Source of the DNA: Eledone cirrhosa
Lineage: Eukaryota
Direction: 5' to 3'
NCBI GenBank assembly: GCA_964016885.1
Contig: CAXHJY010000594.1
Span: forward strand, 1-60,044
DNA: 60,044 nt
In this document: positions 3,906-49,305 of the stretch, one piece after another
Numbering within the stretch: position 1 is the stretch's first letter
How the letters are laid out: each line of letters opens with the position of its first letter
The notes under the pieces: model-generated
Told to the model about the DNA's origin: nothing
What the model saw: only the letters and a program-made list of their open reading frames with translations
The model's database searches: none
Program-made: the position numbers and the translations under genes

Positions 3906-4046
3906 TACCAATATAATAATCTCTGTCATCTTCTCCCACCACCCACCACCTTCCTTTTCCTCGTCCTCATCATTACTCTCATGGCGATGATCATGACAAT
4001 CACCCTCTTCTCCCTACTCATAGTATTCACCATTATTAATCGACAA

Positions 4047-4240
4047 GGGCGGTGGATTGGCAGTATCGGCTGAAGGTCAGACGCCATGCTTTGCAGAATA
4101 GAGTTACGCCCCTTTACGTTCTGAATTCAAATTCCGCCGTGGTAAACTTTACCTTTCATCCTTACGGGGTCGATTAAATAAAGTACCAGTAATGCACTGG
4201 GGTAATTGCTGGCCTTGTGCCAAAAGTAGAAACAGTTATT
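4047..4240 (+). mobile_element. tRNA-derived SINE, short subtype, with TSD
   Basis: A-box-like TGGCAGTATCGG, B-box-like ATTCAAATTCC, core, and 3' end ggccttgtgccaaaagtagaaac. Flanking near-repeat ttattaatcgaca (4033-4045) / ttatttatcgaca (4236-4248). Confidence 0.9.
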
Positions 4241-6424: not shown

Positions 6425-7260
6425 CCCTCGTCCGTAACTCGAGATCCAGGCCTTTTCTAACCAGCACTGCCACCCCGCCTCCAATTCGATACCATCTAAG
6501 AGATGTGAATATCTGATTTCGTTAGAAATTGGGTTTAGTGCGTGCTTGTCGGAAATCTTGGTCTCGCTAACGGCTGTCACATCCATATCTAGTGAACTGA
6601 AGTCATTCAGCAAGCGTCCTTGCTTCCAGGACGACCCCAGACTACAAACATCCTACTCATACAACAGCCATGTTGGCCTGGTTAGTCAAGAGAGAAAAAA
6701 TGGGGGCTAAATACCCGCCGGGTGCTGTCGGAGGTCTTGTGGTTCGATTTCCATATTTGTTGGGGTTTTCTTTGGAACCCCCTTTAAAACCTACTCGTGG
6801 CTCTACGGGACCCCACGCGATGCGGAAATCTTTCCCTAATACCTTTTGTAGGTACCCAGGGTCATCAGTACCTTCATTAGAGATTCAAACACTTTAAATA
6901 CGCTGGTGCCAAAAATATCTCCCTCTTTCTCACTCTTTACTTCGTGCCATGAGGGCTATCAGTTCTTCGTTGGCCTTTCTTACTAGCACGAGTGTTTCTA
7001 TGCGGTGTTGTTTACTGTTGAATTTGTGTGTCTGTGTGTTTTCTTTTGGTTGTGGTTGTGGCAGGGTTGATGGTGGTGTCGATGGTGATTGTGTTACCAG
7101 TTGGGGGTGGTAGTGGAGGCGGTGTTGTTTCAGATGTATTTGTGTTTGGTGTGGGTGTTCGTATCGTGTCAGACTTCTTGCGCGTCTTTTTTTAACTTTT
7201 TCGGTTTGGGTCTTTCCTCGTCTCTTTCACTGGGAGAAGAGTTGGTGCATGTCTCTGATA
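6425..7260 (-). mobile_element. Tx1-like retrotransposon fragment (ORF1 C-terminus plus APE N-terminus)
   Basis: ORF 6260..6613 LNDFSSLDMDVTAVSETKISD matches LNDLRSIEMDVIAVNETRISD in the full copy. Nucleotide similarity to about 32840-33550. Confidence 0.85.
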
Positions 7261-7906
7261 ATGGTGGGAGTGCAGCAACCCCAGCATTAATAAGAATAAA
7301 TTCAGCAATTGCAATTTTACTGTATAGAGTTAAATATGTTGCCATACTATTAGGACACATCTAGAAACTCTTTTACAGAGAGAGAGAGGGGGAGCTTTCT
7401 TTACGGATCTCTTGGGTGCATTTGTTGGAGTCTTTTGTTGTTGGTGGTAGAGGTGGTTTTGTTGCTGCTGTTATTGTTGGTGATGTTATTGATCTCTCAC
7501 CCGACATGTTTGGAGTACTCTTTGACAGGGAAAGTGATCTGGTTCCGGATGATCGTTACCAAGCAACTGATTACACAAATAATATGTGCGTAGCTTGACA
7601 CAAATGGACGAAGGAAGAAAACGATACACTCATTGAATGTCATGTAAGGGCAACATTGGAGGGAAGCGGTGGAGTAGGGCCACGTACTTTGGATGTTTGG
7701 ATGGAAAAAGACATGTTTTCGATGTCAGAAAATAAAATAATGAATCAACTGTTGGTTATTAGGAGGAAGGGTTGGTTAATTGAGGTAGAAATATCTTGTG
7801 TTAGTGAACGTTTAAGTGAACCCGCAGATGAGCAACAGAGGGAGGTTAGAGTAGAAACCGAAGCCGTTTCTACAGTTGAAATCAGATAGAAAAATAGACA
7901 TCACAA

Positions 7907-7968
7907 GGGCAGTGCTCCAACATTACCTCAGCCGGATGGCTGGAACAGGTAAAATAGTAAAATAGTAA
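7907..7968 (+). repeat. CR1-type 3' tail motif (...GGCTGGAACAGGTAAAATAGTAAAATAG)
   Basis: Matches the LINE end at 47627-47680 and the minus-strand copy at 51522-51581. Confidence 0.65.
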
Positions 7969-8401
7969 CAGAAATAAGGAAAGTATGATGAGACTGTTAG
8001 GACTGCTGAAAAGGAAGGTTAAAGATTGAACCTTAGTAGTGCTGAGGATGGTTATACACGAGGGGGGGGGGGGGGGGCTAGTTAGATGATGAATCGCTTG
8101 AATTACAAAGATGGTTTATGGATTTGATGAATGCATCATGAATATAAGAAGAGTAGATAGGAGTATGAAGAATGAAATTACAAAAAAGATTAATGTTCGT
8201 CATACCACATATCTAGACAGAGAACATAACGCAAGCAAAGAACTTTATCCGAGCTATTGCACTACTTGTTGAGGAAAAATTACAACAAATGAAATCAAAG
8301 TAGCGTAGGGCAAAAGAACCATGGTGGGTTCTATAAAGTAATGGGACAATTAAAACAGGATTTTGTCAAAAGACCGGAAGATAAGAAATAAGCAAAATAA
8401 T

Positions 8402-10488
8402 CCAGTAACGCTGATGAGGAAAGACGAGAACACGACGGATATCTTAGGCAATTTCTGGCCCATAACTCTGCTAAATATAGAGTTTAAGATTTGTTGCCAA
8501 TGTGTTAACGAAGACGTTGGTGCCTGTCGTCCAGGGTCTGGTAAGGGAGGTGCAAACTTGCGAAATCCCGACCAGTTCCATACATGAAAACCTCCACCTC
8601 ATGCAATACATCATAGAGAGGGTAGGGCGTAAACCTGGCTTCGGTGGGACTCTGATCAATTTAGATCAATCAAAAACTTTCGATAGGGTCGACCATCGAT
8701 ACCTGGAGGCAATTCTCAAGGCAGCTGGGATGAGAGACCTGATCGCTGCATTGCACAGCGGCATCCGCTCGATGGTCAAAGTTAATGGTCATCTTTCAGA
8801 CCTCCCGATCGGCCCGTCAAGGATGCTCTCTCTCCTCCCTCCTGTACGTATTGACTCTCAAGCCTTTACAGTGGAAGCTGGAGTTGTTGCAGAACATCCG
8901 GCTCGAAGCAGGACGTGAAAAGGCTGTGTCGGCATATACGGACAACATCACCGTGATGGTGTTGGACACCTTGGAAATCGAGGTGGTCGGAATATGAAAA
9001 GTTGACGGGAGCAAAACTAAATCCGGAAAAGTCGTTGGGCTTGCAACTCGGCACCTGGAGAGGCAAGTTTATGTCATTCAACAACGTTGTAGGGCGCTGA
9101 ACGGACGAACCGGTAAAGCTGTTCGGTGTCTGGTTCGGCCTAGATCTCCAGGTGGATAACATTTGGGACGAGGTTACGACCAGGGGCCACTCTCACACAG
9201 AAATGGGCCGAGAGGAAGCTGTTCCTGAAAGGCCGGATGGAGTAGTTAATGCGTACATCGCATCCGTCATCTATTACCGCCTGACAATCGTGCATTGCCT
9301 CCGTTCACGCCTCACCAAATTGGAACGGCTCCTTTTCAACTTCTTGTGCAATTGACAGGTTCCGTTGGTGAGGCTGTTCATCTGCTGCCAACACCATCTA
9401 CATAGAGGGCTGAGCAGGCCTGGGTAATGATGCGCAAACATGCGTTGGATCTGCGCCATCTCCAGAAACGTTGTCTAACGGTGAACAGGTGTGGTCGCAG
9501 TTTGTGAGACAAGTCTTTCCACAGCTCGTCTCTTTGACTGAACTGCAGTCCTGGGTCAAGAAGAGACGAAGACTGGGTGCCTGGCATCTGGAATGTTGCC
9601 AGGTGCTCACTGCCATCTACAAGGCATGCATTACTGACTTGTGGAGTTATGTGGATCAGCTGTTGTTGCATGTGGGATGGATCCATCTATGAACCGAATC
9701 CATAGTAAAGATCACCCCACTGCCTTCTTTTGACTGGGAAGGGCAAGCAGTTTTCCTGTCTGGTAGTGGTAACAAAGGAGGTTGTGTTGTGGACCAGGTT
9801 GAAAGGACTGAAGTCAGACACTTTTCTCTTCGGCCAATCCCTCATCAGCTTTTTCAAGTTTAAAGGAAGGTGAGGGTGGAGAGAGAAGTACTGCCTCACA
9901 AGTACATTTTCTAAAAGGTGAGTGAATGTGGCGAGAATGGCCTGCGTGAATGGGCTGGTTAAATTGAAGAGGAGAGGGATGCCCATCCCGGGTGCCCTCG
10001 AAGCGTCGGATGGTTCAGGATTGGTGGGACACCTGAGTCGGCCCCGAGTTGTTAACCCCTACCGGGGAATTTATTTTGTTGGCGAAACCAACAGGTAGGA
10101 GCCCCAAGGATAGACCCCGAGCAAGATGGTTAGATAACATCCATAAGCTTTGCTGGTCACGCTTGGGGATCCAGCCGGACCAGTTGGAGACGGTTGCTTG
10201 TGACAGGAGCCGCTGGAGGGAGTGTTTGAGGACTCTGCCCCCCCCCCCACGGCACTCTGAAGAAGAAGAAGAAGAAGAAGAAGAAGAAGAAGAAGAAGAA
10301 GAAGAAGAAGAAGAAGAAGATATTTATATAAATGTTTTATTTTATATTTTTTCATTATTAATTGTTTTTGTTATTGTGTAATTTTTACTCAGTTTTATTG
10401 TAAATCCCCACTGGCCCTGTCTTTCTATTGTCCCCTTTATATCGGCCCTTGTGTCCAATAAACGAAACCATTATTATTATCATTATTA
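8402..10488 (+). mobile_element. 5'-truncated Tx1-like retrotransposon (RT to 3' end), decayed
   Basis: Motifs FWPITLLNIEFKI, LINLDQSKTFDRVDH, RQGCSLS and AYTDNIT. Colinear with 29420-31580. Internal deletion of about 300 bp near 9625. AATAAA at 10457-10462 and (ATT)n tail at 10470-10488. Confidence 0.92.
10078..10320 (+). mobile_element. RTE-clade (Rex3/Expander-like) 3' end with (GAA)n tail, nested in the Tx1 3' UTR
   Basis: KPTGRSPKDRPRARWLDNIHKLCWSRLGIQPDQLETVA...WRECLRTLPP resembles Rex3/Expander C-termini. Second copy at 16550-16832. Confidence 0.8.
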
Positions 10489-10494: not shown

Positions 10495-10885
10495 GGGCGG
10501 TAGTTTGGCAGTATCGGTAGAGGGTCGGACGCCATGCTTTGCTGCATAGAGTTACGGCCCTTTATGATCTGAGTTCAATCCCGCCGAGGTTAACTTTGCC
10601 TTTCATCCTTACGGGGTCAATAAAATAAAGTACCAGTCACTCACTGGGGTCGATTTAATCGACTTTTCCCTCCCCCAAAAATTGCTGGCCTTGTGCCTAT
10701 ATAAGAAAATTATTAGAGTTATGGCCATTTTCGTTGTGAGTTCAAATCCCGCCAAGGTTAGCTTAGCCTTTCATCCTTAAGGGGTCGATAAAATGAAGTA
10801 CCAGTAATGTACTGGAGTAGATTTAATAGACTTTTCCCTTCCCCTTCAAATTGCTGGACTTGTACCTAAAATAGAAATAACTGTT
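10495..10885 (+). mobile_element. tRNA-derived SINE (long subtype) followed by a 5'-truncated second copy
   Basis: Full head, core and tail directly after the Tx1 (ATT)n tail. The second copy begins right after the first copy's ATTATT tail. Confidence 0.9.
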
Positions 10886-13429: not shown

Positions 13430-14225
13430 GAGGGACAAAATGGTAGCTCGCCAGGTGAAATGCCTTGTGGTATTTATTTAACCTTCTTCTTGTCTTGAGT
13501 TCAAATCCCAGAGGGATTCAACTTTCCTCACTCAACGTTTCTAACATCTATACAAAATACCCCCCCCCCCACATATATATATATTGTGGTCGATTTATTC
13601 ACTTTAAAAATGTGGCCTTGTGCCAATATAGAACACTATAACTTAACAGAATGTTTAGAGTGTCGTACAAGTGACTTGCCGTACTTCTTGTTGTTGCTTA
13701 TGTTCTGAGTTCAAATCTCACCAAGGTCAACTTTGCCATTTATCCTTCTGGGGTCGATAAAATAATTGTTTCTACTTTAGGCACAAGGCCAGCAATTACC
13801 CAGTGCATTACTGGTACTTTATTTTATCGACTCCGTAAGGATGAAAGGCAAAGTCAACCTCGGCGGGATTTGAACTCAGATCGTAAAGGGACGTAACTAT
13901 GCTGGAAAGCATGGCGTCCGACCCTCTACCGAAATGTACCAGGCAAAGGTCGATACAATCGGATTATCCCTCAAACTAAATCTCCTGGTCTTGTCTCTAA
14001 ATTCGAAACCATTTAGTCTGGTTGAATCATTACCATATCGGGCAAAATGTTTAGTAGCAGTATTTATTCCAGCCTACTACTATATCAGTTCAAATTCCAC
14101 CGAGGTCAACTTAGCCTTTCAAGATTCCAAGGTCGATAAACTAATGTACTAATCAAGAACTGGAACGCGATTTAATTGACTGCCCCATCCCCCAAATTAC
14201 TTTTCTTGTACCTAAATTAGAAAAC
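13430..14225. mobile_element. SINE cluster: three degenerate plus-strand copies, one interrupted by a minus-strand copy (13762-13932)
   Basis: The core ...ggggtcgataaaataa is broken by the reverse-oriented SINE and resumes at gtaccag (13936). Confidence 0.8.
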
Positions 14226-24000: not shown

Positions 24001-24284
24001 GTAAGAAAGCGTTATTAAATTGGTACGAAGATTCTAGAAATAAAGTTTCATGCATAAAGCAAACAGGCTTTCATCGGTTATATATTCTGCTAAGAAAAGA
24101 CCACATTGGATAATGTATATCTAGGTACTCATCAGTAAGAAGCTAAACAACAACTACTAATATGAAGCTGCTAAAAGAGCTAATATGGCCGACTTGCTAG
24201 TAATTATAGCCAAATCTCTCTCAAGTCACATACCACCGTCATATAGAAGGAATTTAAGACAATGATCATCTGCCATTATCGTTG

Positions 24285-24645
24285 CAGCAAAGAGTTACGG
24301 CCCTTTATGGTCTGAGTTCAAATCCCGCCGAGGTTAACTTTGCCTTTCATCCTTACGGGGTCGATAAAATAAAGTACCAGTAATACACTTGGATAATTGC
24401 TGGCCTTGTGCCAATAGTAGAAACAATTATCATTGGTGGATTGGCAGTATCGGTAGAGTCGGACACCCTGCTTTGCAGCATAGGGTTACGATCCTTTACG
24501 GTCTGAGTTCAAATCCCGCCGAGGTTAACTTTGCCTTTCATCCTTACGGGGTCGATATAATAAAGTACCAGTAACGTACTGGGGTCGATTTAATCGACTT
24601 TCGCCTCCCCCAAATTACTGGCCTTGTGCCTATACTAAAAATCAT
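24285..24645 (+). mobile_element. Head-to-tail SINE dimer (short plus long subtype)
   Basis: Two cores joined through ATTATCATT. Flanked by cattatcgtt on both sides. Confidence 0.9.
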
Positions 24646-24844
24646 TATCGTTCTAATGCAGTGACAGACGTCTATAATCTTTCTCCAGCCATTTCATGAT
24701 AATTGTGGTCTCGTGGTCGGGTGATTAGCTCTTGCGATATAAGAAGGATTTGAAATCTTAGACAGTGTTTGAACTAAGAACACCAAGTGGCAGAATAGAC
24801 AACACAAGGTGTCTCACCCTACGCTCTAACACATTTCCAAATCC

Positions 24845-25549: not shown

Positions 25550-26037
25550 TTTAAGGACAATGCCAATAATTTGAAGGAGGGGAAAGTCGATTATATTGCC
25601 CCCCCACCCCGTATTTATCTGTCAGGATGAAAGGGAAAGTAAGCCTCGGTGAGATTTGAACCCGTAAATTTAAAATACGAAACAATTACCGCAAGGCATT
25701 TTATTTGACGTGCTAACGATTCTGCCATTCCACCGTCCCAAATAACAACAACAACAACAACAAAAACAATAATAATAATTGTTTCTACTTTTGGCACAAG
25801 GCCAGCAATTAACCAGTGTATTACTGGTACTTTATTTTATCGACCCCGTAAGGATGAAAGGCAAAGTTAACCTCATAAAACAATAATAATAATGATCTCT
25901 GATTTAGACACAAGGCCAGCAATTTCTTTTTTTGTGGTGGGGCAGTCGATTAAATCGATCCCCAGTACGTGACTGGTACTTTATTTCATCGGCCCCTTAA
26001 GGATGAAAGGCAAAGTTAACCTCGGCGGGATTTGAAC
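25550..26037 (-). mobile_element. Three head-to-tail SINE copies joined by (AAT)n
   Basis: Copies at about 25550-25738, 25770-25875 and 25890-26037. Confidence 0.85.
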
Positions 26038-26129
26038 ATATATTGCTGTGTTATCTTTGTTGTTGCCATTGCAGCTGTTGTGGCAGTCGCTGCTGCTATT
26101 GCTTTGGACGATTCCTGTGGTTTCGGTGC

Positions 26130-29100
26130 CTACGCCACTACTGCCAGATGTGTACCATCCAGGAGGTCAATCATCTCAGGGATGGAGTCCAGGGATTGTT
26201 GGTCAGTTTGGATGAGGTGCACCATCCTCATTCCGGGCGAGCTTTCCTTCCACCCCTTATGGACTTCGAAGATAGTGGTTCGATCCCCGATGTTGATTGC
26301 AGTAAGATGTCATGAAGATCACATCGTTCTTCAAAGTGTAATTTCCCCTCTTCCACTGCAACGTATCCGAATTTTCCCCTTCGAATTATCAGGATTTTCA
26401 GTTCCAACTTACAGCCATGGGCCTTTTGGGTGTTTGATTCTAGGGTGCGTTCAACATTCTGTCTTATACGTAATTGTGAGGAAACGTAACTCCTCAATTA
26501 CTTCTAAGGTGGACAGGGTGACTTTGTGACCGTTTTTTAAAACTGGTTGAGTAGCTTACGCGTCTAATTTTCTAACTAGTTCCCCCTCTACTCTATATTT
26601 CTCTTTTGCTAGCGCCTTACTGAACCTAATGGATTCTATTCTAATCGCCCTTTTTAAGGCGAACCACCATTTGTTGTTGACGATGCCCCTGTTACGCCCG
26701 CTTAACTAATCACTAATCCTGTCTCTGTAGACTTTGTGTTCCGTGAGCGACGCGTTTAGCTTCCAGTAGCCGGGTCCCTGTCAATGAAACCTTTCTAAGT
26801 CGACCACACAGATCACAAATTTGTGCTCTGTGTAGTCAACTATCTTGAATTGTGGACAACCTATGCTAGAACATCTATTTCCTTACAAAATACCCTATCT
26901 AGATACGATCTGGATGACTCGATGCGGTTTGTCCATTTCTACATTGGCGCATTCAGGAAATCCAATCGGTATCTGCCAGACAGTTGCAAATATCTAAGTA
27001 GTTTGCAAGGTTTTACATCCCTCCCCCATACGCTAGTCCCACACAGTCCCAGTGGGCACCCAAGATCCCGTTCAAATCGCCCACTAACATTAAAGAGCGA
27101 GACGTTCGTGGGACGTTCCTGAAAAAATCAGGCCATCCTGCACATGTCGGGCATAAACAGCCTTTAGCCTGAAAGCATAGCCTTCACTGCTGGTCACGTC
27201 CAGCATCACCGACTTACCTTCTGTATCTAGGAAGATAGCCTGTATCAAGAGATCCAGGCCTTTCCGAATCAATACAGCAACTAAACCTCCAGATGCCGGA
27301 CGGCTGGTAGATGGGTACACCTCGTAGCCACCGAAAATGGGTGCGAAAGCTTTTGTCCCTGAAATTCTGGTCTCGATGATGGCCACATCTATGTTCATTA
27401 ATCTGAGGTCGTTTAGCAGGTGACTGCTTCCACGACAACTCCCATGCCAGGTGTGTTTACGTTTCTTATTCTGAGTAAGGCCATGTTGAAAAAGAGTAGG
27501 AACAGGTGGGAAAGACCATTTACCTCAGTTCTGTGGAGGAAGGGTGGTTCCTCCATCCTTCTGGCTAATTGTGGCCCTCTCCGCAAGGACGTCTTTGTAT
27601 ATTTTTCTGGAGAGGGTTTCACGGAAATCTCCATGTCATTGGCATGTCTTCCATAGACGTTGGTGCTGGTTGTGGTGTGGTGAATTGTGGTGGCGCTAGT
27701 GTTGTTTCTGGAGTGTTGGTACACTTGCTACCGTTGCTGCTGTTGTTGTTGGTCGAGCCAGTAAAGGAAGTGGCGTAGACAAGAGTTGTGGCTTTAATTT
27801 TTGGTCAACTTCTTGGAGCAAAAGGCCTTTAGGTGGGTTTCAGTCCCCACACACGTGACACCTTGGCCTTCTACTCTCGACGGCCACGGTGAGGTGGCTG
27901 CTGTCGTCGAGGTCTATTACTTTTGAAATTTCTTGGATGTTCTTCTAGTCCGTTTGGACCAGGAGCTCCATTCCTGATCCGGACCAGTTTTGTTGTTTTG
28001 TTTTAATATTCTCAAGAATTTTGGTGTCGTCCTCAATGTCAGTAGTCATCATCAGGGAAATGCTATTGCCGGTGGAAACTGAGTTACTCGCACTCTTGCG
28101 AGCCTTTGACCGCAGCAGCTTGTGACCAGAATGAGATTATCACTCCTTAGTGGTTTCATGGAGTGTTCTTTGGCTTCCTGTGGGGGTTACAAAGAACACG
28201 TCCATGGTTCCATATTTTTTCCACGCGTGATGTGCGTTTTTTGAGCCCACACATGTCTCAAAGCCTTTTGTATCTGGGATTCCGATGCCCGCTCCATCCG
28301 GAGTGTCTTTATGCTAATTGTACGATATGATACCGTATATAGCCGCCGGTGTTCCATGATGTTATATGGAGGAGTAAAGCTGACACTGTATCCATTTTTT
28401 TACCATTCTCCTGGCCTCATCCATTTCGTCGTGGGTCACCGTGACCTTTTGATTTTTGTTTGCAGCTCTCGAAAAAGAGACGTTTGGTCTTGCGTTGCTG
28501 TTGCTGTTGTTGTTATTCTTACTGTTTCTGTTGTTGCTGTTGTTGTTATTGTTGTTGCCATTTGCGTTGCGTTCTTGTCGGCGTTACTGTTATTTTTAAT
28601 GTTTGCTTGGGTTATATTTATTGTTGCATTGCTGGTGGTGTGGCTGTTATTGATATTGTTATTCATGTTGTGGTTACTGTTATTGCTGTCCATGTTCTTA
28701 TTTTTTGTGTTCTCACAGTTGTCTGTGTTGCTTTTAATTTTTGTTTGTTTGTTGTTGTGGTTGTGTTAGTGGTATTGGACATACTTGCTGGCATTGTGGT
28801 GTCATTATGGCGAGTTCACATAGGTAAATATTGGCAAAGGTGGAAAATCTATTTTGTTAGCAGTTGCTGCACAGGATAAATTTTGGATATCGTTGTTGTT
28901 GTTGTCAACGATGCTGTCTCTAGTGTTGGCAATGGTAGAAAAGTGTACAGTGGTGGTAGTGGGAGCGGTGTCAACATTAAAGCCGTTGTCACGTGACAGC
29001 TGGCTTAACTCTGGGGGATGTATTCCATCCATATATTTTGAGAAAAAAATTTGCTTGAAAGATTAAAGCTCAAATATTTGGGCGAAGGCCCAAATATTAT

Positions 29101-29197
29101 TGAGTGTCATTTTTAGGGAGCAATATATATGAATTTATCAGCAGTTAACAACAAAGCTTTCGGAGCTCACAAGCTCACAATAACATGTCTTCACATA
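26130..29197 (-). mobile_element. Older Tx1-like retrotransposon (5' UTR, ORF1, APE and linker; 3' part missing)
   Basis: APE motifs DVAIIETRISGT and LKAVYA, and a GPGYWKLN-type stretch near 26755-26780. Frameshifted CCHC knuckle CHVCGD..THLKAFC near 27815-27860. 5' UTR hairpin shared with the full copy. Confidence 0.85.
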
Positions 29198-29370
29198 TAA
29201 TAATTGTTTCTACGTTTGGCACAAGGCCAGCAATTACCCAGAGCATTACTGGTACTTTATTTTATTGACCCCGTAAGGATGAAAGGCAAAGTTAACCTCG
29301 GCGGGATTTGAACTCAGACTGTAAAGGGATGTAACTATGCTAGAAAGCATACCGATACTGCCAATTCACC
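29198..29370 (-). mobile_element. tRNA-derived SINE (short subtype) between two Tx1 copies
   Basis: Head ggtgaattggcagtatcggt, core and tail, all on the minus strand. Confidence 0.9.
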
Positions 29371-29693
29371 TAATAATAATAATTGTCTCTACTTTTGGCA
29401 CAAGGCTAATAATAATAATAATAATGATTTCATTTATTGGCCACAAGGGCCGACATATAGGGGACAATACAAAAGACTGGGACACTGGGGTTTTACAGAA
29501 AAATCGAGTAAACAATATGAATAACAATAACAAAGTAACAATAACAAAGTAACAATAAAGTAACAATAAAATTACAACAAGAAAAAATTCCCCAATAAGG
29601 GGGATGACCAGCTAGGGTTCGCTCAGTCCTGAACGACCCGACGCTTCGAGAGCACTATGGAAGGGCACCCTTCTCCTCTTCAAATTTACCTAC

Positions 29694-32600
29694 CTACAGG
29701 CGCATGATCAGAGTAGGCCCACTCACACGGGCCATTCTCGCCACATTCACCCACCTTTCAGCAAATGTACTGGGGGGCAGCACTTCTCTCTCCACCCTCA
29801 CCTTCCTTTCCAAGTGAAACTTGAAAAAGTTGATGAGGGATTGGCCGAATAGAAAAGTGTCTGTCTTCAGTCCTTTCAACCTCGTCCATCATACAACCTC
29901 TTTCGCTACTGCCACCAGACAGAGGAAAATTGCCTGCCCTTCCTGGCCAAGAGAAGGCGGCGGGTCGATCTTCACTATGGACTCGGCCGATAGCCGGATC
30001 CGTTCTACACGCGACAACAGCTGTTCAACATAACTCCACAAGTCAGTAATGCACGGACACTGACGAGTGCGTGCAGAACGGTTTCGTCGCTCTGCGCGCA
30101 TCTCCGGCAGGTCTGTCTGACAGCACTTCCGTGCCTGGAGAGTTTATCTCGAACCGGCAGTACCTCCCGGTAGCACTGCCAAGCGAGGGATTTTTGGAAA
30201 TTAGCCATCGTCCCCGGCTCGAAAATCCTCCGGTACAGACTGGTTAGTTCGACTTCGTTGACTCCCAGAGCCTCTCCGAGTGCGTCGTCGCACTTGCCCA
30301 CCACTAATCCTCTATAGAACTCGAGAGTGGAAGTTCCACTGACCGCATTGCCCGCCTGGTAGAGGGCAGTGAGTGCCTGGCAACATTCCAGATGACAGTC
30401 ACCCAGTCTCGGTCTCTTCTTGACCCAGGACTGCAGCTCAGTCAAAGAAACGAGCTGCGGAAAGGCCCGTCTGACAAACGGCGACCATACCTGTTCACCG
30501 TTTAGGCAGAATATCTGGAGATGCCGCAGCCTCAGCGCGTGCCTGCGCATCATTAGCCACGGCATGTCCAGCCCTCCACGTAGAGGGTGCTGGCAGCAGA
30601 TGGACCGCCTCACCAGATGGACCCCTCCACAAGAATTTGAAGAGGAGACGCTCCAAGATGGCGAGGCGCGAACGGGGCCAAGGGACGACAGTCAGACGGT
30701 AGTAGATGACGGACGCGATGTACGCGTTCGCCACCTCCGCCCGACCTTTCAGTGATAGCTTCATCCCAGCCCATTTCTGGGTGAGACTGACTACTCTGCC
30801 CGTCACCTCGTCCCAATTCTTATCCACCTGGAGATCTGGCCCGAACCAAACCCCTAGCAACTTTACCGGTCCGTCCGTCCAGCGCCTAACGACGCTGTTG
30901 GACAGCATGGACTTGCCTCTCCAGGTGCCGAGTTGCAAGCCCACTGACTTTTCCGGGTTAAGTTTTGCTCCCGTCAACATTTCATATTCCTCCAATAAGT
31001 TGCTGACCACCTCGATTTCTGAGGTGTCCGACACCATCATGGTGATCTCGTCCGCATAAGCCGACACAGCCTTTCCGCGTCCCGGTTCGAGCGGGATGCC
31101 CTGCAACAGCTCTAGCTTCCACAGTAAAGGCTCGAGAGTCAATACGTACAGAAGGGAGGAGAGAGGGCACCCTTGATGGATCGATCGGGAGACCTGAAAC
31201 GGTTCCGAGAGGTGGCCATTAATTTTGACCATCGAGCAGGTGCCGCTGTGCATTGCAGCGATCCAGCTTCTGAAGACGGGGCCGAAGCCAGCCGCCTTGA
31301 GGACAGCCTCCAGGTACCGATGGTCGACCCTATCGAATGCTTTCGATTGATCTAAATTGATCAGAGCCCCACCAAAGCCAGGTTTACACCCTACCCTCTC
31401 TATGATGTATCGCATTAGGTGGAGGTTGTCGTGTATGGACCTGGTTGGGATTGCGCAAGTTTGCGCCTCCCCAACCAAATCCCCGACGACAAATCTTAAA
31501 CTCTATGTTGAGCAGAGTTATGGGCCCGAAATTGTCTAATGTGTCCCTCTTGTTCTCGTCTTTCCTTATCAGCGTCACTACTCCCCGGCTCACAGAACTG
31601 GGAATACTCCCGTTTTTCTGCCAGTTGCAGTAGAGGGCTTCGAGGAGATTGGAGAACAAGTCTGGCATATTTACGTAAAGCTGGTAGGGCAGGCCATCCA
31701 AACCGGGTGACTTGCGCCTCATGCAGCCGACAAGGATATCCTGAATCTCGGCTGAAGTAATTGGCCTTTCGCAGCGCCCAGCATCAGCCGTCGAGAGTTG
31801 CGGCAAGCCATCGAGGTAGGGACTGAAGTCCGCCACCATCTGTGACCCACCACTTCCCCCGAACAACCGAGAAAAATGTTGGCGAAAGGCCTCACACATC
31901 CTCTTGTAATCGCTCAGCTCGTGCCCATCTCGGTACGTCAAAGACCGAATCGAGGTTTTATTACCACGCTGCGCATCCGCCACGCGGGCCCATCGAACAG
32001 CTTTGGTTCCCTCGTTTCTCAGAGCACGCGCCTTAGCTCTGACAATGCAACCTTCGTGTTTCGCATTGAAGAAATGGTCTAATGCCATTCTCGTCGCTAG
32101 CACATCAGTTGCAATGCCACTACCAATAGCCTCGTCTAACTTATCTACCAACTCCCCCTCCTTTCTATTTTTCTCTAATGCTAGTTCTTTGCTAAACTCC
32201 ATCGAGATTACTCTAATCTCTCTTTTGAGAGCCCCCCCCCCCCCACCATCTATTGTTGACGATTCCCCCTGTCAACTTTTTCTTAACTGAATTGTTGACC
32301 TGGTCCCTATAAGCCTTACGTGCCGGAAATGACAGGTTTAGCTTCCAGTAACCAGGTCCTAACCTACGCGTCTTATCTAGGTCGACCATACAGATCACAA
32401 ACTTGTGATCTGAATAGGCGACCGTTTCAAAACGTGGACAGCTTACACTATTTCTGTCTATTTTCCTAATGAATATCCTGTCTATATACGATCTAGATGA
32501 CCCTAAGCGGTTAGTCCAGGTCCATACTGGCGCATTAGGGAAATCTAGTCGGTACCTGTCAGACAGTTGGAACTGGCTGATCAGGTTCTTGAGGCTTTTG

Positions 32601-33085
32601 CACCCCTCGCTCCTATCGGATACTCCCACACAGTCCCAGCATGCGTCTAAGATGCCGTTCCAGTCCCCCGCTAACAGTAAAGGGCGAGACGTACCCAGAA
32701 AGGCTTCCAGGCGTCTAAAGAAGTCCGGTCGTCCTGCCCCAGTAGGAGCATAGACGGCCACCAGTCTAAAGGCACCACCTTCATTATTGTTCACGTCCAG
32801 GACCACCAACTTCCCGTCCGGGTCCCGGAAGATCGACCTTACCTCGAGATCCAGGCCTTTCCTAAACAGCACTGTCACCCCGCCTCCCATTCCCGGCCGG
32901 CTAACAGATGCAAATATCTGATAGTCGTCGAAAATGGGGGCTAGTGCGCGCGTGTCGGAAATCCTGGTCTCGTTGACTGCAATTACATCCATTTCTATAG
33001 ACCTGAGGTCGTTGAGCAGGTGACTCTGCTTCCAGGACGATCCCAGGCCTCGAACATTTAAATATCCTACTCTTAATACGGCCAT
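29694..33085 (-). pseudogene. Tx1-like ORF2 (apurinic endonuclease, reverse transcriptase, C-terminal zinc motif), frameshifted
   Basis: Motifs LNVRGL, VYAP, GDWN, IDRIF, SDH, GPGYWKLN; KSPGLDGLP, LDQSKAFDRVDH, QGCPLS, YADE; CRRCAQSDETVLH. Split over ORFs 32213-33085, 31384-32202, 30495-31478, 30005-30613, 29889-30101 and 29694-29879. Confidence 0.93.
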
Positions 33086-33116
33086 GTCGGCAGGTTAAAC
33101 AGAGAGAGAGGAAGGT

Positions 33117-35104
33117 TTACTTACCTTCCGGGCTCTTGTGAAGGTCGGGTTGTTCAACCTCCATAGTTAGTGGGGTTTCTTTTGGGAACCCCTTTAAAAG
33201 TCTTGAAGTGGGTTTTACGTTCGGGGTTGCCACGTCCCGAGGAAAGCTGTCTCGTATTTCTTTGAATATATCGAGCGACATTCGCACCAGAACCAAATCT
33301 TCCGGCACGCGAAATGTGCTTGATTTAAAAATTTCCCCCTCTTTTTGTATATTTTCACTTCGTGCTACGAGGGTCATCAGTTCCTTGTTGGCCCTCCTGG
33401 CGAGAACGAAGTTTTGTATGTTTTGTTGGTGTGATTTTATTTGTTTGCGTGGCTGTGGTGGTGATGGTTTTGGTGGTGTTGTTTCGGTTGTATCTGTGTT
33501 TGTTGTGAGTGCGGTGTCTGTGGTTTCAGATGTTTGTGTGTATATTTGTTCTTGCGTCTGTTTCGGCTGTTTGCGTTTGGGGGATTCTGGTGATGGTGAT
33601 GGTGGTGTTGATGTTGGTGTTATTGGAGAGTTGTTTGCGTGGGTGGTGTCTGCGTTTTTTATTGTGGGTGCTTTTGTGCTTTGTTGAGTTTTTTTTCTTT
33701 TTGTGTTTCCTTTTTTGTATTTTGGGGGATTTTGGATTTCCCTCATTTTCACTACTGGTAGATGAGGGGTCTGTGTCTGTAAGTGTGTCTGTATGTATGT
33801 TTATGGTTTTATTGGTGTGTATATTTTTTGGGGAAGGGGGTATTTGACAGCTTTCCTCGTTTCTCCCCTGGGTGGTCAATGTTGGTGGTGGTCTTTCTAT
33901 TGGTGTTGTTGTTGGTGGTTTTGCCGGTGCTGGTGTTGGTTGTGGTCCTCGCCCCGGCGTCGGCAGCAGTGGAGCCTTTCGACCACATGCCTCTTTCAGC
34001 AGTTGAGGGCAGAAGGCCGCAAATGGGTTTTTTCCCCACAAACAAAACACTGCGGCCTTTCGCCTTCGGTCATAATGTGAATGACCGTCCCATTCTGAAG
34101 GCGGATGTGGTCCGGGATTGTCTTCACATTCTCGGGCCTGATCTGGAGAAGGTTCTCCAGGTCAACCCCGGACTAGTTCTCTCTGGCCGTTCTGCTCACT
34201 TCTATAGGGACTGTATCCGTCCCCTCCACAATCACACATCCCAGAAGCCACCACATGTCAAGTCCTGGTGGGATTCTGGGAATGCGGAGACGGGCCGTTC
34301 TTTTTCCCATGTGGGAGGGGTACATTATGACCTTGCTGGTTTTGCTAGGAGTCATAGCGTGTTTCATAGCGAGGGCTTCTGACTTGAACAACACTGAAAT
34401 GGTGCCGTACTGTCTGCCCCTCTCTATGTACTGGGTGTCTTCTCTGATGCTCCTCAGCGCGACTTCGACATATTCTTGTGGAATTAAAGCTGCCCTTTTG
34501 GTTTGTGCTGAGATGCATCTATAATGCACCGTTTTGCGCTCCACTGCCTCAATAGCTTCTACCGTGACAGTTAAGTTGGCCCAAGTTTGCTCTTGCTTGA
34601 TGAGCTTCCATGCCTGGGCCAACTTTTCATCTTTGTTTGAGAGGTCCATGTTGAAGCATGGCCTCTTTTTTGCTGCTGCCGCAGCGAAAGTGTTCTTGTT
34701 TTCGTTGGGGGTGTTGTTGTCGTTGTTCTTGTTGGTATTGTTGTTAGCACTGTCGCTGTTATCATTGTTGTTTTTGTTGCCACCGTTGTTCTCGGTGCAG
34801 TTGGTATTGTTGCTGTTGGTGTTGTCGCTATTTGTTTTCATGTTAGTGGTGTTGATATTGTTGTTGTAGTTGTTATTTTTTTTTTTGTTATCTGTATTTT
34901 CGTTGTCGCTGTTACTGTCATTTTTTTGAAAATTAGAGTTCTTATTGGTATCATTGGTGTCTTTGTTTACCTTGTTTTTGGTGGTGTTTGTGTTATCAAT
35001 GTGTGTTAATTTCGCTGTAGTGCTCCTCTCAACTTCTACGTCGTTGTCGCACGACAGCCGACATATCGCTGGGGGGGGGGGGGGGGGGGGGCTGGCTCAG
35101 CCAT
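33117..35104 (-). pseudogene. Tx1-like ORF1 (gag-like nucleic-acid-binding protein), disrupted
   Basis: N/T-rich N-terminus, globular segment (ORF 34173-34841), CCHC knuckle CFVCGEKTH..AFC near 34005-34052 across a frameshift, and a P/T/K-rich C-terminus ending just before ORF2. Confidence 0.8.
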
Positions 35105-35310
35105 GTTTTTTTTTCTTCGTAAATTTTTTAACATGTAAAATAAAGTTAAAATATTTGGGCCAAAAGGCCCAAATATTATACTTTACCCTTCACGGGGCAA
35201 AGTCTAAGGGCTTATATCCCTTACACAACAAGAAATATTTAACAACAAATAATGTTAACAGGCAAATAAAGCGACTTACTGGGAGCGAGCAAAATATGTC
35301 CGCTTAGACC

Positions 35311-35517
35311 AATAATAATAATAATAATAATTGTTTCTACTTTTGGCACAAGGCCAGCAATTACCCAGTGCATTACTGGTACTTTATTTTATCTACCCCG
35401 TAAGGATGAAAGGCAAAGTCAACCTCGGCGGGATTTGAACTCAGATCGTAAAGGGACGTAACTATGCTGGAAAGCATGGCGTCCGACCCTCTACCGATAC
35501 TGCCAATCCACCGCCCT
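35311..35517 (-). mobile_element. tRNA-derived SINE (short subtype), full length, tail abutting the Tx1 5' end
   Basis: Complete head, core and tail, with (AAT)n on both sides. Confidence 0.92.
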
Positions 35518-36076
35518 TAATAATAATAATAATATTCTTTAATCACTAGTCACATAACGGAAGTAGTACAGATTTGAATAACAGGAAGATCGCTATAACA
35601 ATATAGATCGCTACTTTACTGCTATGAAAAGTATCCATTATCATCGATGAAATAACATCAAAAAATAGAAAAATAGAAAAAAATAGAAAACAAAAGAGGA
35701 AAATATTGAATGCTACCAATGTAAGTAATACATTTAACTTATTAGTGACATGTTATTGTTTCTTTGTACATAATATAAGTGATATATTGCAAATGTTCGA
35801 ACTATAGGCCGATTAGTCACTAAATATAAACACAAAAATGGTGCCCGAGTCAAATCAATATCAGAGTCAGCTCAAAATAACAGCAACAAACATTAAGCAC
35901 AATATAAATGAAAGCCGTATAATTCTGCTCAAGCTTTTGACCTAATAGTTAAGGTATTGGACTCACAATTATAATGACGTGGGTTCGATTCCTGAACCAA
36001 CCGGCGTTTTGTATTCTTTAGCAAAATACATTATTTCATGTTGTTCCTGTCAGGAATTGCCACCGACAGTAATATT

Positions 36077-36291
36077 GGTTTCTTATATAGGCACAAGGCC
36101 AGCGATTTTGGGGGTGGGGAAAGTCGATTAAATCAACCCCAGTGCGTGACTGGTACTTTATTTTATCGACCCCGTAAGGATGAAAGGCAAAGTTAACCTC
36201 GGCGGGATTTGAACTCAGATCATAAATGGCCGTGACTCTATGCTGCAAACCATGACGTCCGACACTCTACCGATACTGCCAATCCACCGTC
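36077..36291 (-). mobile_element. tRNA-derived SINE (long subtype) with 20-bp TSD, inserted in a different SINE
   Basis: ttgccaccgacagtaatatt at 36057-36076 and 36292-36311. A tRNA-like head of the host element lies at about 35935-36050. Confidence 0.92.
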
Positions 36292-37126
36292 TTGCCACCG
36301 ACAGTAATATTAACAACAGGAAGATCAATGGAAACATTGTTTACATGGTCCGATCTGACGATAAGCACCTTTCCTATCGTTTGTTGTTTAATCCTGTCAG
36401 AGTAATAGTCGAAGAGGCGTATGATGGAAGGCATTCCAACCATGACAGTCACGCCGTTTTGTCAATCAGGAATCCCATTAGTTAATGCGCACTTTTTTAT
36501 TTTAAAAAGTGTGTGTGTGGGGGTAAATTTGAGTGTAGGTTATATTTGAGTGTATTGTGTGCGTGTGTACTATTTGTGTTTGTGTAATTGTATAAGCGTA
36601 CACACCTGTGTGCAAAAGTTATATAGTCGATTATTGAGTCACTATGTATGTGTATTAGTATGGCTATTTCTATGTATTTATGAATCTATGTGTATATTTA
36701 TGTATGTTGTATGTATCTTCTTCTTCTTCTTCTTCTTCTTCTTCTTCGCTTTTAACATCTCGTGCCGAATTTCACCATCCCCAGCATCATTGCTCTACTT
36801 TAGATTATTCATCCAGATGCACTTTTTTCTTTTTTAATTCTCTGAAATTCTTCTAAAAAAAAAACTTTACTACAACAGCAATAAAATGTTTAATGTTTTA
36901 TAGTCTTGGACATTATAATTGTTATACTTACAGATTAAATTTACTGATTCGATGGTAACTTTCATTGTCTTGAAATGTAAGCTTATCCAGTCTATTATTT
37001 AACCACATCGTTACCATATTTCTAATGAAAAACACTGCCTATAGTTTTCAAATCATTTTGTACATAATGAAGTATCGGAGGGTTTAATAATATAACTATT
37101 TTCTCTTTATTCATCTGTTATGTGAA

Positions 37127-38910: not shown

Positions 38911-39635
38911 CTAGACCACCTGTGACCCGTTGGGTCAAGTTCACTTCAAAATACTTTGAAAAAATCATGTTCACTTAAAAACAATTTTTAAATAATTGTT
39001 TCTACTTTAGGCACAAGGCCAGCAATTACCCAGTGCATTACTGGTACTTTTAAATCATTTTTAAATAATATACACAGACATGTATATAATGTGAAATGAA
39101 ACTGGAAGGCCCATATATATGCATTGTGTATAGAAATATAGAAATGTGCGTGTGTGTATACATATATATATATATATGTGTGTATGTATATATATATATG
39201 TGGGAGTCTGTTATTCTATATACACTGGTCATAGACAAACACACACATATACACACACATATATATATACACACACACTCACACGCACACACATATATAT
39301 ATACACAACAACACCATCAGCTCTCTCTCTCTCTTCCATTCTCCTTCTCTGTCTCCTCTCCCTCTCTCTCTCTATGTCTCTCTTTCAATCTACTCTCTCA
39401 TAACCACTATCGCTTTCTCTCTATCCTTCTCTCTCTCTATTTATGAAGGTATCCGAAACAACTCCCGTATCTCGGGAACCCGTACATCGATTTACGTGAA
39501 ACTTGTTTTATTCCATTTGTATTCGCCTTTCAGGGTCAAGTTCCTTTCAAAGTATTTTCCCATTATGCGCTCCTTTGGCTGTATTACATTACAGACAAGC
39601 AAGCAAGCAATCGCAGAATTTTAGTAATATATAGA
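38911..39635 (-). mobile_element. Helitron-like non-autonomous element containing a SINE tail (38993-39050) and microsatellites
   Basis: Minus strand A|TCTATATATTACTAAAA followed by (TTGC)n, ending in hairpin TGACCCAACGGGTCA then CTAG|T. Confidence 0.6.
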
Positions 39636-41142: not shown

Positions 41143-41358
41143 GGGCGGTGAATTGGCAGGATCGGTAGAGCGTCGAACAACATGCTTCGCGGTATATAGT
41201 TACGGCCCTTTACCTTCTGAGTTCAAATCCCGCCGAGGTTAACTTTGCCATTCATCCTTACGGTGTCGATAAAATAAAGCACCAGTAATACACTGGGGTC
41301 GATTTAAACGACTCACCCCTCCCCTTCAAATTGCTAGCATTGTGCCTAAATAGAAACA
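41143..41358 (+). mobile_element. tRNA-derived SINE (long subtype), full length, with probable TSD
   Basis: gttattacgttacaacatc (41121) / gttattacgttgcagcatc (41359). Confidence 0.92.
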
Positions 41359-41896
41359 GTTATTACGTTGCAGCATCATTACTAAGCAACGTCATAAGCA
41401 ACGATACCTTGCAGTATCATTGCCTTACGATGTCTTTACCTTGTGACGAACTTAGTAGGCGGTGAAATTACAGGTGATGTGTATACCATTATGTTATTAC
41501 ATACAATGAATTCATCGGGCAGCTAAAGTGTGTATATGTGTATGATTGTATGTGAGTGTATGTGTGGGTGAGGAGTCTGTAAGGCAGATGTTTTGATAAG
41601 CAGCGCTGCCATGCTAAACTTACTATGCTGGCATAAATATAAACATACAAACTATATTTTAGTTCTATCTATAATATACCTACTATCTGATTTAATTTTT
41701 GTTTCTGAGTAAGTATTATAAGATTTGAAAACAAGTCGTAACCAGATTTATACCAAATTCTGCAAGAATAGAGTTATAATAGCGAAGAATCAATTACCAT
41801 ATTTGGTGGGTATGGTGGTCACTTAGTACACCCATTATATGTGCCCCTATGTACCACCAGAAAATGTATAAATACCACCATATCACATTGACAGTC

Positions 41897-45499: not shown

Positions 45500-47676
45500 A
45501 GGAAGGGAGATAAGCTGACAGATCTGTTTCACACTGTTAGTGTTCCTCAGAGCCTAGTACTCGCCGACCTCTGCCGAAAATTATAGAATTAACTGATATG
45601 TGGTCCGAGAGAACCCACAGACACACAGCCATCAAGAAGCACCGGGACCTTATCCAGCCTTAACTTCTACAAGGTTAACTGGAAAAAGATCAAGAGAGAA
45701 CTCCGGAAGCAAATATGGAGCGAATACACCGCCACACAAGACACCAACACACAATGTCAACACTTCATGACAACGATACACACTATATGCCAAAAGTTTG
45801 TCCTGGAGAAAAAGGCCAACAGACACAAAAATCTTATTCCCAGAGATAGAAAAATTCTTATGAGACGAAGAACCAAACTCTCAAACCAGTTGAATGCACA
45901 ACAAGAAAACAAAAACGAGAAGGAATCCTATTTGAAATGTGCACTACTTGACACCGAGAGGGCAAAGAAAGAAAGCAGGGCCATAGAAAATATTAAAACA
46001 AACCCTAAGGCTTTCTTTAAATTTGCAAAAGAAACTGCCTCGGTACACTGCAAGATTGGGCCACTCTTCCATACAGACGGTTCATTAACCGAGAATCCCC
46101 AAGAGATAAGTGAAATACTGAACGAACAGTACAAAAGTGTGTTCACATGTCCACTGAGGCACATGCAAATAACAAAGCCAGAGGAGTTATTTGATGCCAC
46201 AACACTCCATGAAGAAATGGTGACCATCAACCACATAGACATAACGGAGGAGGATGTGGTATACGCCATAGATGAAATTCGAACAGACTCAGCTGATGGA
46301 TTCCCAGCAGTCCTCTTAAAAACATGTAAGCGAGCCTTAGCAACTCCACTGAAGACGCTTCTTCAGAAGCTCCTTGGCTAGCGGTATACTACCCAGGGAG
46401 CTGAAAGAAGGCACAATATGCCCTATCCAGAGCGGAGGCCAAAAACTATAGGCCAGTCTCCCTGACGTCACATATCAATAAGGTCATGGAGCGAATCATC
46501 AGAAAGAAACTGATCACTTTCCTAGAGGAAAATGACCGCCTGACTAGCACGCAGCATGGCTTCCGCCCAGGAAGAAGCTGCCTTACACAGCTGCTACATC
46601 ACTACGACTGGGTACTTAAACAACTGCTAGACAGCTCACATGTGTACGTGATATATATTGACTTTGCGAAGGGCTTTGACAAGGTCAACCACGGAATGAT
46701 ATGTCACAAACTACACGAACTCGGCATAACTGGAAAAGTAGGTGAGTAGCTGCATAACTTCTTAAAGGACAGAAGCCAGACAGTCGCAGCAAACGGGGCC
46801 CTCTCAAAGGAAACATCAATAACAAGTGGGGTGCCCCCAGGCACAGTCCTGGGACCATTACTGTTTTTGGTGGCTCTCTCAGACATGCCCTCTGTAGAAT
46901 ATACAACAACATCCCTCACTAGCTATGCTGATGACACTAAGGTAACACAGGCAATCAAAAACCCGGCTGACGCTGCCCTTTTACAAGATCTGGATGCCAT
47001 ACACAAATGGGCGGAAGACAAAAACATGCAGTTAAATTCTGGCAAATTCCAAGCCCTACAATACAAACCTGCAAACACAAATATAGTACAACACAGTTAC
47101 ACAGGAGCAGAAGAGACCGATATACCGTGTCGAAATCGATACGAGACCTGGGCATAGACATGAACGATAATGCATCTTTTTCCTCACACATCATGAAAGT
47201 GGCGACAATGTGCAGACGACTCGCTGGTTGGATCTTGAGGACTTTCCGGACAAGAGACCGAGACACCATGTTCCACACCTTGGAACGAAGACAGGAGTGA
47301 TACGCAGTGATCTACATGTGGAAAATCCTAGAGGGACAAACACCAAACTTTCGCATTGGGAGCTGGACCAACCGTCGAACAGGACGTCACTGTGCAATAG
47401 CCTGGGGTTCAAGGGCCTTCAACTCTTCAACAAACTGCCCAAAGATATGAGAGATTTGCATGATGTGGATGTGGAGGTCTTCAAGAAACATCTCGACACC
47501 TTGCTAACCAGGATCCCAGGTGAGCCCACAGCAAGGCACGAGGGAAACCTAAGGGCAGCAGCAACAAACTCCCTCTTGCACCAGTGGCCAACCAATACAG
47601 GCTGGAGATAAAATGTGTATCAACAAGGGCGGTTCCCCAGCATGGGCTGGAACAGGTAAAAGAATAAACGAATAAA

Positions 47677-47761: not shown

Positions 47762-47919
47762 ATATATATATATATAATTATAAGTTAAGAGAGAGATAGA
47801 GAGAGAGAGAGAGATAGAGAGAGAGAAAGAGGAAGCAGGGGTACACATGTATGTGTATGTAAATAGATATCATGTCATGTCATATATATATGTATATATG
47901 TATGTATATATGTATGTAT

Positions 47920-48523
47920 GTCAGGTCACCAGTTGGTGCTACTGGTAACATGTATCCCAGCACAACCTGTCTCATAGTCGGGTCGTTGGCGACTAAACTG
48001 GCAACCCCATGAAGGTTTCTTGGTGAGGAGGGTGACTTTGGACATCCTGCAGGACTAAAAACAAAACCTGTCAAAGGGCAAAGGAGCTCTTAAGAGTCAA
48101 TGACCCTCCAAAATCACCGGGAAAGATGACCCCTTAGCCTTTGTCAAGGCAGAATTCTAGGAGAAGGAAAACTGATATAACACCTGAAACCCTGATGGTA
48201 TCCAATGATGTTGACTTGTTCTTCTTTTTGGTAAATATCATCTTGGTTAAGAGAGTGGGACTGGCTTTGTGCAGTGCCTTTGCTCACTATAAAAGCTTAA
48301 CGGCACAGGCATTGCTTTATATCTGGAGATCTCTCTGCACTTGTCGTCACATGGTACCATGGGCCCAGCACTGTGTCAATAATTGTGACAAGTGTAGTGT
48401 TTGTACCAGAGTTTTCAAGTCGCTGGCTGGACTAAAAAGTCACACTCGTTCAGCGCATCGGTAGGGGTTCTCCTACATGGTTATAAAGTAGTGGCCGTAC
48501 TCGAAAACGAGTTGGCAGCCACC
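47920..48523 (+). mobile_element. Non-autonomous RTE-derived element (family R1, about 600 bp) within (TATG)n
   Basis: Near-identical copy at 56975-57581. Ends with CSVCTRVFKSLAGLKSHTRSAHR*, hairpin ACTCG-AAAA-CGAGT and an (ATGT)n tail. Confidence 0.8.
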
Positions 48524-49305
48524 ATGTATGTATGTATATATGTATGTATGTATGCACATACATACATATACATTATTTTGTAATTTGGCAAAGAATATCA
48601 AAAGTTATGAGAGCACACAATATTAGGGTAGAGATGTAGAATTACTATGGCATCATTGAGGTCCAATTGTTTCTCTGAGATAGGTTTTAGAACCTCAGCC
48701 CATATCGACTCTAATTTATAATGAGAACTTCCAAACATCGTCTATATAGACTAATGATCTGGGACCAAGAAACAATTGCACATAAATGATACCGTAGTTA
48801 GTGTAATAAATATCTCTCTCTATGTCTCTCTCTCTCTCTCTCCCCCTCTCTCCCCCCTCTCTCTCTCCCTCTTTCTCTCTCTCACTCTCTCTCTTTCTCT
48901 TTACATATATATATATGTACGAGGTTAACAGGTGATAAATTATATTTACTAATATATATATATATATATATATATATTCAGAGAAAGAATATTAGAAAGA
49001 CGTTCATACAAACACACACACATATGCTGTCAAGTTAAATGAATAAATCACCTGCTAACCTGGCAGAGAATCTCATATAATCTTTAAGACGTAGAACAAC
49101 AGATGTTTCAGTGAAGACTTAATAGGAATTTACTCACCTACACGCGACAGATTAGTGTGAAGAAACCATAGGTTCAACGAAATAAGAAATATCAGTAATG
49201 TACTGGAAATCAAGGAAAAGTGTCAATCTTTAGATCGCACCATAGAAACAGAGTTTCCCTTATGGTCGAGTAAAATAGGCGGGTGCTAGCTGCTTTTTCT
49301 AGCAA

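Follow-up and report, generated by a model that had tools for sequence, protein, structure and literature searches.

A one-way train of Tx1-like LINEs and tRNA-type SINEs in an octopod genome, probably stacked by separate insertions at ATT-type targets

The window analysed here is the whole stretch of 60,044 nucleotides at positions 1 to 60,044 of contig CAXHJY010000594.1 of Eledone cirrhosa (assembly GCA_964016885.1). It is rich in microsatellites and contains about 28 pieces resembling a short interspersed element (SINE) and four pieces of long interspersed elements (LINEs) similar to Tx1, here called Tx1-A to Tx1-D. A 10-kb stack of these elements, the train, is real and runs in one direction. 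All of its units lie on the minus strand and ATT runs occur at its joints, as a first-pass annotation of this DNA had described. That annotation recognized the train but counted seven units, having missed a SINE stub at 29371-29406 and the Tx1-D piece with its open reading frame 1 (ORF1) homology. There are nine in all, which read in the 5' to 3' direction of the minus strand as a SINE, Tx1-A, the stub, a SINE, Tx1-B, Tx1-D and three SINEs.

35519..35533, minus strand: (ATT)5 run at the upstream edge of the train, a copy of the target
35311..35518, minus strand: SINE 35518, short-tail type, full length, ending in (ATT)7; 2.2% from the window majority
29407..35310, minus strand: Tx1-A, full-length LINE of the L1/Tx1 type, ending in (ATT)6
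29439..29451, minus strand: 3' motif of Tx1-A, GGCC-CTTGT-GGCC, a predicted small hairpin held in common with the SINE tail
29371..29406, minus strand: SINE tail stub of 36 bp, followed by (ATT)4; 97% identical to the end of SINE 35518
29197..29370, minus strand: SINE 29370, short-tail type, slightly 5'-truncated, with an internal deletion
26561..~29196, minus strand: Tx1-B, an older relative with 5' untranslated region (UTR), ORF1 and endonuclease; 3' part lost
26040..26560, minus strand: Tx1-D, fragment of a third relative, ORF1 homology at 26115-26294, non-ATT joints at both ends
25875..26037, minus strand: SINE 26037, long-tail type, 5'-truncated, 7.5% diverged
25770..25874, minus strand: SINE 25874, short-tail type, 5'-truncated, between perfect 17-bp duplication copies (ATT)4GTTTT
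25553..25738, minus strand: SINE 25738, old, 30% diverged, behind a GTT run

Five of the joints are ATT runs, the final one is ATT plus GTT, and two (26561 and 26040) are of other sequence. The junction at 26040-26130 had been annotated as the sole exception; it does lack ATT, but so does the joint at 26561, where a later deletion appears to have joined Tx1-B to the Tx1-D fragment. The joint between SINE 29370 and Tx1-B reads ATTATTAT. SINEs had been reported to start directly behind Tx1 or SINE tails, which is correct for SINE 10495 behind Tx1-C, whereas SINE 29370 follows the stub and not the Tx1 tail. Similarly, a Tx1 5' end directly behind a SINE ATT tail is seen at 35310, but the 5' end of Tx1-B is known only from a palindrome in common with the Tx1-A 5' UTR and its exact position cannot be fixed. 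The stub may be a SINE that has lost its 5' part, or else a long duplication that arose when Tx1-A inserted.

The train SINEs differ from the window majority by 2.2, 2.2, 3.8, 7.5 and 29.9%. SINE 25874 is enclosed by a perfect 17-bp target-site duplication that includes non-repeat bases, and it was clearly inserted later than the run that ends SINE 26037. Sequential insertion, proposed earlier, is upheld by this duplication and by the different ages of the units. The order of the insertion events is otherwise mostly unreadable, because the duplications sit within the repeat.

Tx1-A carries a broken ORF1 (about 33120-35105) and an ORF2 (29697-33085) in which the frame changes four times and a stop occurs once, and it is therefore a dead copy. 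Its ORF2 is nevertheless laid out as an N-terminal APE endonuclease, a reverse transcriptase (RT) and a C-terminal zinc motif, as in the L1/Tx1 group. The Pfam domains Exo_endo_phos (2e-14), RVT_1 (8e-17) and zf-RVT (3e-6) are found and the catalytic motifs are present. An intact relative, P0007, finds human L1 ORF2p (2e-74) and R2 (9e-18) among solved structures. Membership of the L1/Tx1 group is thus backed by the domains and by the best structural match. The name Tx1 itself is provisional and follows the architecture, as the RT tree has no named Tx1 reference; the nearest named RT relative, from Argonauta hians, is 63% identical. The ORF1 has a CxxCxxxxH pattern and then a break, and the homologous ORF1 of a sister lineage (692 aa) has a full CCHC. 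LINEs of the L1/Tx1 group usually carry a 3' poly(A) tail. Tx1-A and Tx1-C finish in (ATT)n instead.

The four LINE pieces are not copies of one element. Tx1-A and Tx1-B are 68% identical in DNA over 957 bp, and Tx1-B breaks off just past the endonuclease, at 26561. Their otherwise unlike 5' UTRs have in common a 39-bp palindrome (35141-35179 and 29064-29100, 87%). Tx1-D matches the Tx1-B ORF1 at 35% identity over 60 aa (E 7e-8 pairwise, 2e-5 against the whole window). The 5' part of Tx1-C, with the end of ORF1 and the start of the endonuclease, is inverted at about 6428-7250 and is split from the 3' half by some 1.1 kb of unrelated sequence with decayed reading frames (7250-8400). Inserted into the Tx1-C 3' UTR are about 280 bp of sequence that finish with (GAA)20.

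The SINE copies are short, dispersed, 5'-truncated and flanked by target-site duplications, as in tRNA-derived SINEs. The head has an exact B box and an A box with one mismatch to the general RNA polymerase III patterns, and neither ARAGORN nor Rfam finds a tRNA in it. Two types exist. The short type lacks about 30 nt, a small palindrome plus a C-rich tract, that precede the tail motif in the long type; this stretch is partly shared with the LINE ends of an assembly, G001, described below. All SINE counts use the 16 copies with definable ends, and 12 short or old body fragments, including SINE 25738, were set aside.

An exact (ATT)n 5-mer lies within 32 nt upstream of 14 of these 16 SINE 5' ends, compared with a background of 12.7% and with 3/16 on the opposite strand. 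An ATT-type target with same-strand bias, as the first-pass annotation suggested, is supported by these counts. Among SINEs that abut no family tail, eight out of ten have the 5-mer in the upstream 32 nt and one out of ten has it on the opposite strand; the local control for these copies, taken from windows further upstream, gives 17/100 (Fisher p 9e-5). Both Tx1 5' ends, few as the copies are, also come after ATT repeats. Conversely, 7/8 of the (ATT)3 or longer runs in the window have a SINE- or Tx1-family 5' end within 16 nt downstream, in a count where two further AAT-class runs in other phases were included without inspection. The target is a short ATTATT-like word and not the SINE as such. 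Searches for RNA genes with ARAGORN and Rfam, the latter covering 35300-36400, gave neither a tRNA nor U2 nor any other such target close to the train.

The target-site duplications are 9-20 bp long, open with an ATTATT-like word and continue into unique bases (SINEs 4046, 23628, 36293, 39050 and 41143). SINE 10495 has a clear duplication that also starts with an ATT-type word. The features concerned are the following.

4046..4240, plus strand: stand-alone SINE with a 13-bp duplication starting TTATT
8404..10488, plus strand: 3' half of Tx1-C, 79% identical to Tx1-A, ending in the same motif and an ATT run
10495..10880, plus strand: two long-tail SINEs in tandem, directly behind Tx1-C
24283..24650, plus strand: SINE dimer with the word CATTATCGTT on both outer sides and a one-mismatch copy between the units, found by eye
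36070..36293, minus strand: stand-alone SINE with a 20-bp duplication starting AATATTA
38990..39050, minus strand: 5'-truncated stand-alone SINE with a 13-bp duplication starting ATTATT
41143..41366, plus strand: stand-alone SINE with a 19-bp duplication starting GTTATTA

Where a stand-alone SINE has a clear duplication, the ATT bases at its 3' junction belong to the duplicated target. The SINE itself therefore contributes little or no ATT and copies its target, so that the next target comes mainly from the duplication rather than from a freshly written tail. The earlier proposal that each insertion lays down a new (ATT)n target is right only in part, as the position of these bases in stand-alone SINEs does not support a newly written tail.

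The second line of evidence, which the first-pass annotation had overlooked, is the likeness of the SINE and LINE 3' ends. The SINE ends in about 12 nt, GGC-CTTGT-GCC, and Tx1-A and Tx1-C end in about 13 nt, GGCC-CTTGT-G(G/T)CC, each followed by ATT. The distance from the motif to the ATT run is equal in both. When the SINE tail is compared with the Tx1-A and Tx1-C ends without the ATT run, 3-47 of 2000 shuffles score as high in seven of eight comparisons. Strict matches to the hairpin occur eight times in the window, and by position all eight are SINE-type or Tx1 tails. These comparisons lend moderate support to a shared 3' sequence. For the four-pair stem, 86% of cells pair, two of the four pairs change on both sides and 8/500 shuffles reach the score, which points weakly to a 3' hairpin.

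The tail motif was also looked for in more distant material. Among 94 distant loci, many of which stop before the 3' end, five have chance-like matches to the hairpin pattern and three have an (ATT)4 run. The 80 metagenome loci are distant, with best segments of 22-44% identity. A run search with 29150-35560 listed 16 rows that carry some of it, three of them with over half of its words, and these are not counted as evidence here. In viral contigs no match was found to either of the two tail patterns or by protein alignment.

A sister lineage is present in G001, a public assembly. G001 is titled as a metagenome-assembled genome of the bacterium Arenicella and holds 16 eukaryote-like contigs, which is a contamination flag. 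Its RT is 49-51% and its ORF1 33% identical to those of the window LINE, and a quick tree places it as the sister of that LINE (SH-aLRT 96). The array contigs are C3-C19 (loci L081-L119, L131, L134 and L136-L151). There are 89 ORF2 matches over 16 contigs, arranged head-to-tail and, within any one contig, on a single strand; a 91-kb contig carries 12 consecutive ORF2 copies. Binning probably favoured such array contigs. The array LINEs are intact and form two subfamilies about 49% apart, and the junction words measure 11-18 bp and vary between arrays. Its units close with a C-rich tract, GGC-CTNGT-GCC and AATAAA. When the whole 218-nt SINE was compared with G001, 33 matches were found, all at the SINE tail (positions 169-205, E 0.005-0.04), with a spacing that resembles that of the Tx1-like unit ends. 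One dimer shows the same 18-bp word at its 5' flank, its joint and its 3' flank, which is the mark of a double insertion; the start of another array has no such repeated word. From the G001 arrays one can conclude that insertions of this lineage pile up at a re-used site, but not that the lineage generally targets ATT.

Taken together, the train was probably produced by separate insertions of a Tx1-like LINE and of a tail-sharing tRNA-type SINE, and grew through duplicated ATTATT-like targets. The SINE is likely, from its sequence, to be a non-autonomous partner of the Tx1-like lineage, copied by the LINE enzyme. The ORF2 protein would recognize the small 3' hairpin on either LINE or SINE RNA. 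Its endonuclease would nick the bottom strand, freeing a 3' end that reads AATAAT, and this end could pair with the (AUU)n end of the RNA and prime reverse transcription, much as a T tract pairs with poly(A) in L1. A second nick 9-20 nt downstream would give rise to the target duplication. The orientation of the new copy would be set by the pairing, and the duplication would place one target at either end of it; longer (ATT)n runs would be struck more often. The site may be chosen by the endonuclease or by RNA-DNA pairing. The wider statement, that an abundant octopod family of tRNA-type SINEs is driven by a Tx1-lineage LINE through recognition of a conserved 3' stem-loop and priming on (AUU)n in place of poly(A), and that this lineage builds self-renewing one-way arrays, is put forward tentatively, at somewhat less than even chances.

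Several observations weigh against this interpretation. The evidence comes from a single 60-kb window that was picked for the train and offers no more than two ends of Tx1 on either side, 5' and 3', and the Tx1-A duplication is unreadable because it falls within the repeat. SINEs 13932 and 26037 have no ATT word upstream, and no duplication was found at SINEs 10717 and 26037. In all, a family tail directly precedes 8/18 of the 5' ends, where roughly 36 in 185 sites would be expected (p 0.014), but away from the train this is true of only 3/11 (p 0.36 against a rough 19%). The counts thus show that the SINE targets ATT, but not, outside the train, that SINE tails are favoured above other ATT words. 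The shared 3' stretch is short and one tail comparison is not significant (181 of 2000 shuffles). Sliding the stem partners by +1 raises the covariation score (0.222 versus 0.181), RNA folding of the tails does not beat shuffled sequences (z -1.6 to +1.3) and the hairpin is in the centroid of 4/9 sequences. The long-tail SINE is nearer to the G001 ends than to the Tx1-A end, and the direct partner may therefore be a subfamily whose end lies outside the window. Finally, the G001 units end in AATAAA rather than (ATT)n, so their arrays do not show the ATT target, and neighbouring units are nearly identical (3461-3465 of 3465 nt), for which unequal exchange may account equally well.

The alternative that survives best, though we regard it as unlikely, is that Tx1 targets the SINE 3' end. 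Tx1-A would then have cut within the tail motif of SINE 35518, the stub would be a long target-site duplication and SINEs 35518 and 29370 would be a former dimer. Tx1-A does stand between the stub and the tail of SINE 35518, two 36-bp stretches with 97% identity, and one event would account for the stub; both Tx1 5' ends come after a SINE tail, and Tx1 families aimed at other transposons exist (PMC4494074). All other duplications in the window, however, are 9-20 bp long and begin with ATT, the one in G001 has 18 bp, and Tx1-C has no tail stub behind it.

The units might instead have been joined in single events, by template jumping between tail-sharing RNAs or by read-through, and template switching has been suggested for SINEU (PMC4494074). 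Many downstream units are 5'-truncated, SINE sequence follows both intact Tx1 3' ends, and a single 10-bp word stands on either side of the dimer at 24283-24650, all of which such joining would explain. It is nonetheless improbable, as SINE 25874 has a perfect duplication of its own, the ages within the train range from 2% to 30%, and different SINE types stand behind Tx1-A and Tx1-C. We give just as little credence to a SINE moved by another LINE ending in (ATT)n, its likeness to Tx1 being an old capture or chance and ATT-rich nicks the only thing in common. The shortness of the shared stretch and the modest statistics would fit this, and there are RTE-type elements in which a 3' repeat matches the beginning of the duplication (PMC6007223). 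The equal motif-to-ATT distance and the confinement of the strict hairpin matches to SINE-type and Tx1 tails speak against it, and the window's other long LINE has a different end. A chance pile-up without targeting, conceivable in an AT-rich region so dense in repeats and selected for its pattern, is very improbable and is largely refuted by the strand-specific upstream motif (p 9e-5 against local controls) and by nine units in one orientation.

The other long LINE (45593-47670, plus strand) has an RT only 23% identical to that of the Tx1 relative; its end lacks the shared tail motif and is followed by an (AT)n run. A 650-bp repeat occurs in two copies (47900-48545 and 56960-57600) that are 95% identical, each lying within (TATG)n and ending in it. 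This repeat, a putative internally deleted RTE-type element, is a second microsatellite-seeking element in the window. A decayed tRNA-like stretch below the Rfam threshold (35931-36001, tRNA E 0.98) lies 400 bp upstream of the train. A young SINE (13698-13932) is inserted antisense into an older SINE of like kind at a TTTATTTTAT-like site, and this is the sole opposite-strand nesting seen.

The window SINE may resemble the octopus CORE-SINEs OR1 and OR2; no OR1 or OR2 sequences were found in the literature searched. The hallmark of MetaSINEs is a 66-bp Meta domain behind the head. MetaSINE identity, the first guess, was rejected: by eye the SINE body is unlike the BivaMeta and BivaMD alignments in the available part of the PMC4824008 supplement, and a motif search in that part gave no match. 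The accessible supplements of PMC3472496 have no octopus, OR1 or OR2 entry. In an Octopus vulgaris assembly SINEs make up 11.6%, and of the families with recent activity the majority are unclassified (PMC13282606). Once the LINE that copies one of these SINEs and its target word have been named, the expansion becomes testable and the places where copies cluster can be predicted.

Tandem growth through re-use of a target is already known from R1, SINEU-3 and Zorro3, and the train by itself is therefore of modest interest. R1 tandems likewise arise from repeated insertion at the same site, with the duplicated target between units (McGurk and Barbash, 10.1101/158386); the units here are in contrast mixed (three LINE relatives, two SINE types, various ages), and a microsatellite word serves as the target. 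Zorro3 of Candida albicans also enters a tract that matches its own 3' end, for which annealing of the nicked strand to the RNA has been proposed, but it has poly(A) in place of (ATT)n, no SINE partner and no large target duplications, in the accessible text (PMC1965478).

Among Tx1 families, insertion of an L1/Tx1-type LINE into a simple repeat is described for Kibi at (TC)n, Koshi at (TTC)n and crocodilian elements at (TTCC)n/(TTTC)n (PMC4494074), compared here by description only. The present target differs in being ATT, about two units of which suffice for the SINE, and in that the 3' end of the element repeats the target unit. The nearest parallel for the pair is crocodilian Tx1-Mar and SINEU (Kojima 2015, PMC4494074), where the SINE is likewise thought to be mobilized by Tx1, judging from a common target, and where tandem SINEU-3 copies, with a target-site duplication between them, are interpreted as having been inserted one after another. 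SINEU has snRNA heads, poly(A) tails and a Mariner target, and for SINEU-1 no LINE of similar 3' end was found, according to the part of that source available; the octopod system combines a tRNA-type SINE, a 3' motif shared with the LINE and an ATT word. SINEs that have a structured 3' end in common with an L1-clade LINE make up 3/58 pairs in the survey of Ohshima 2012, described from maize, sorghum and a green alga (PMC3472496).

No report of an octopus Tx1-SINE pair, a Tx1-tailed animal SINE or an (ATT)n-specific Tx1 was found in the open literature searched, although Repbase, Dfam or subscription papers may hold one. What is new beside the systems above is that an octopod SINE likely has a partner of the Tx1 type, the two having a 3' motif in common and ATT as the target, together with an array-forming sister lineage. 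If correct, this would be an animal SINE/LINE pair of the stringent type within the L1 group, from a lineage that forms mixed 10-kb trains in this animal and, in another, pure arrays in which a dozen copies extend over 70 kb.

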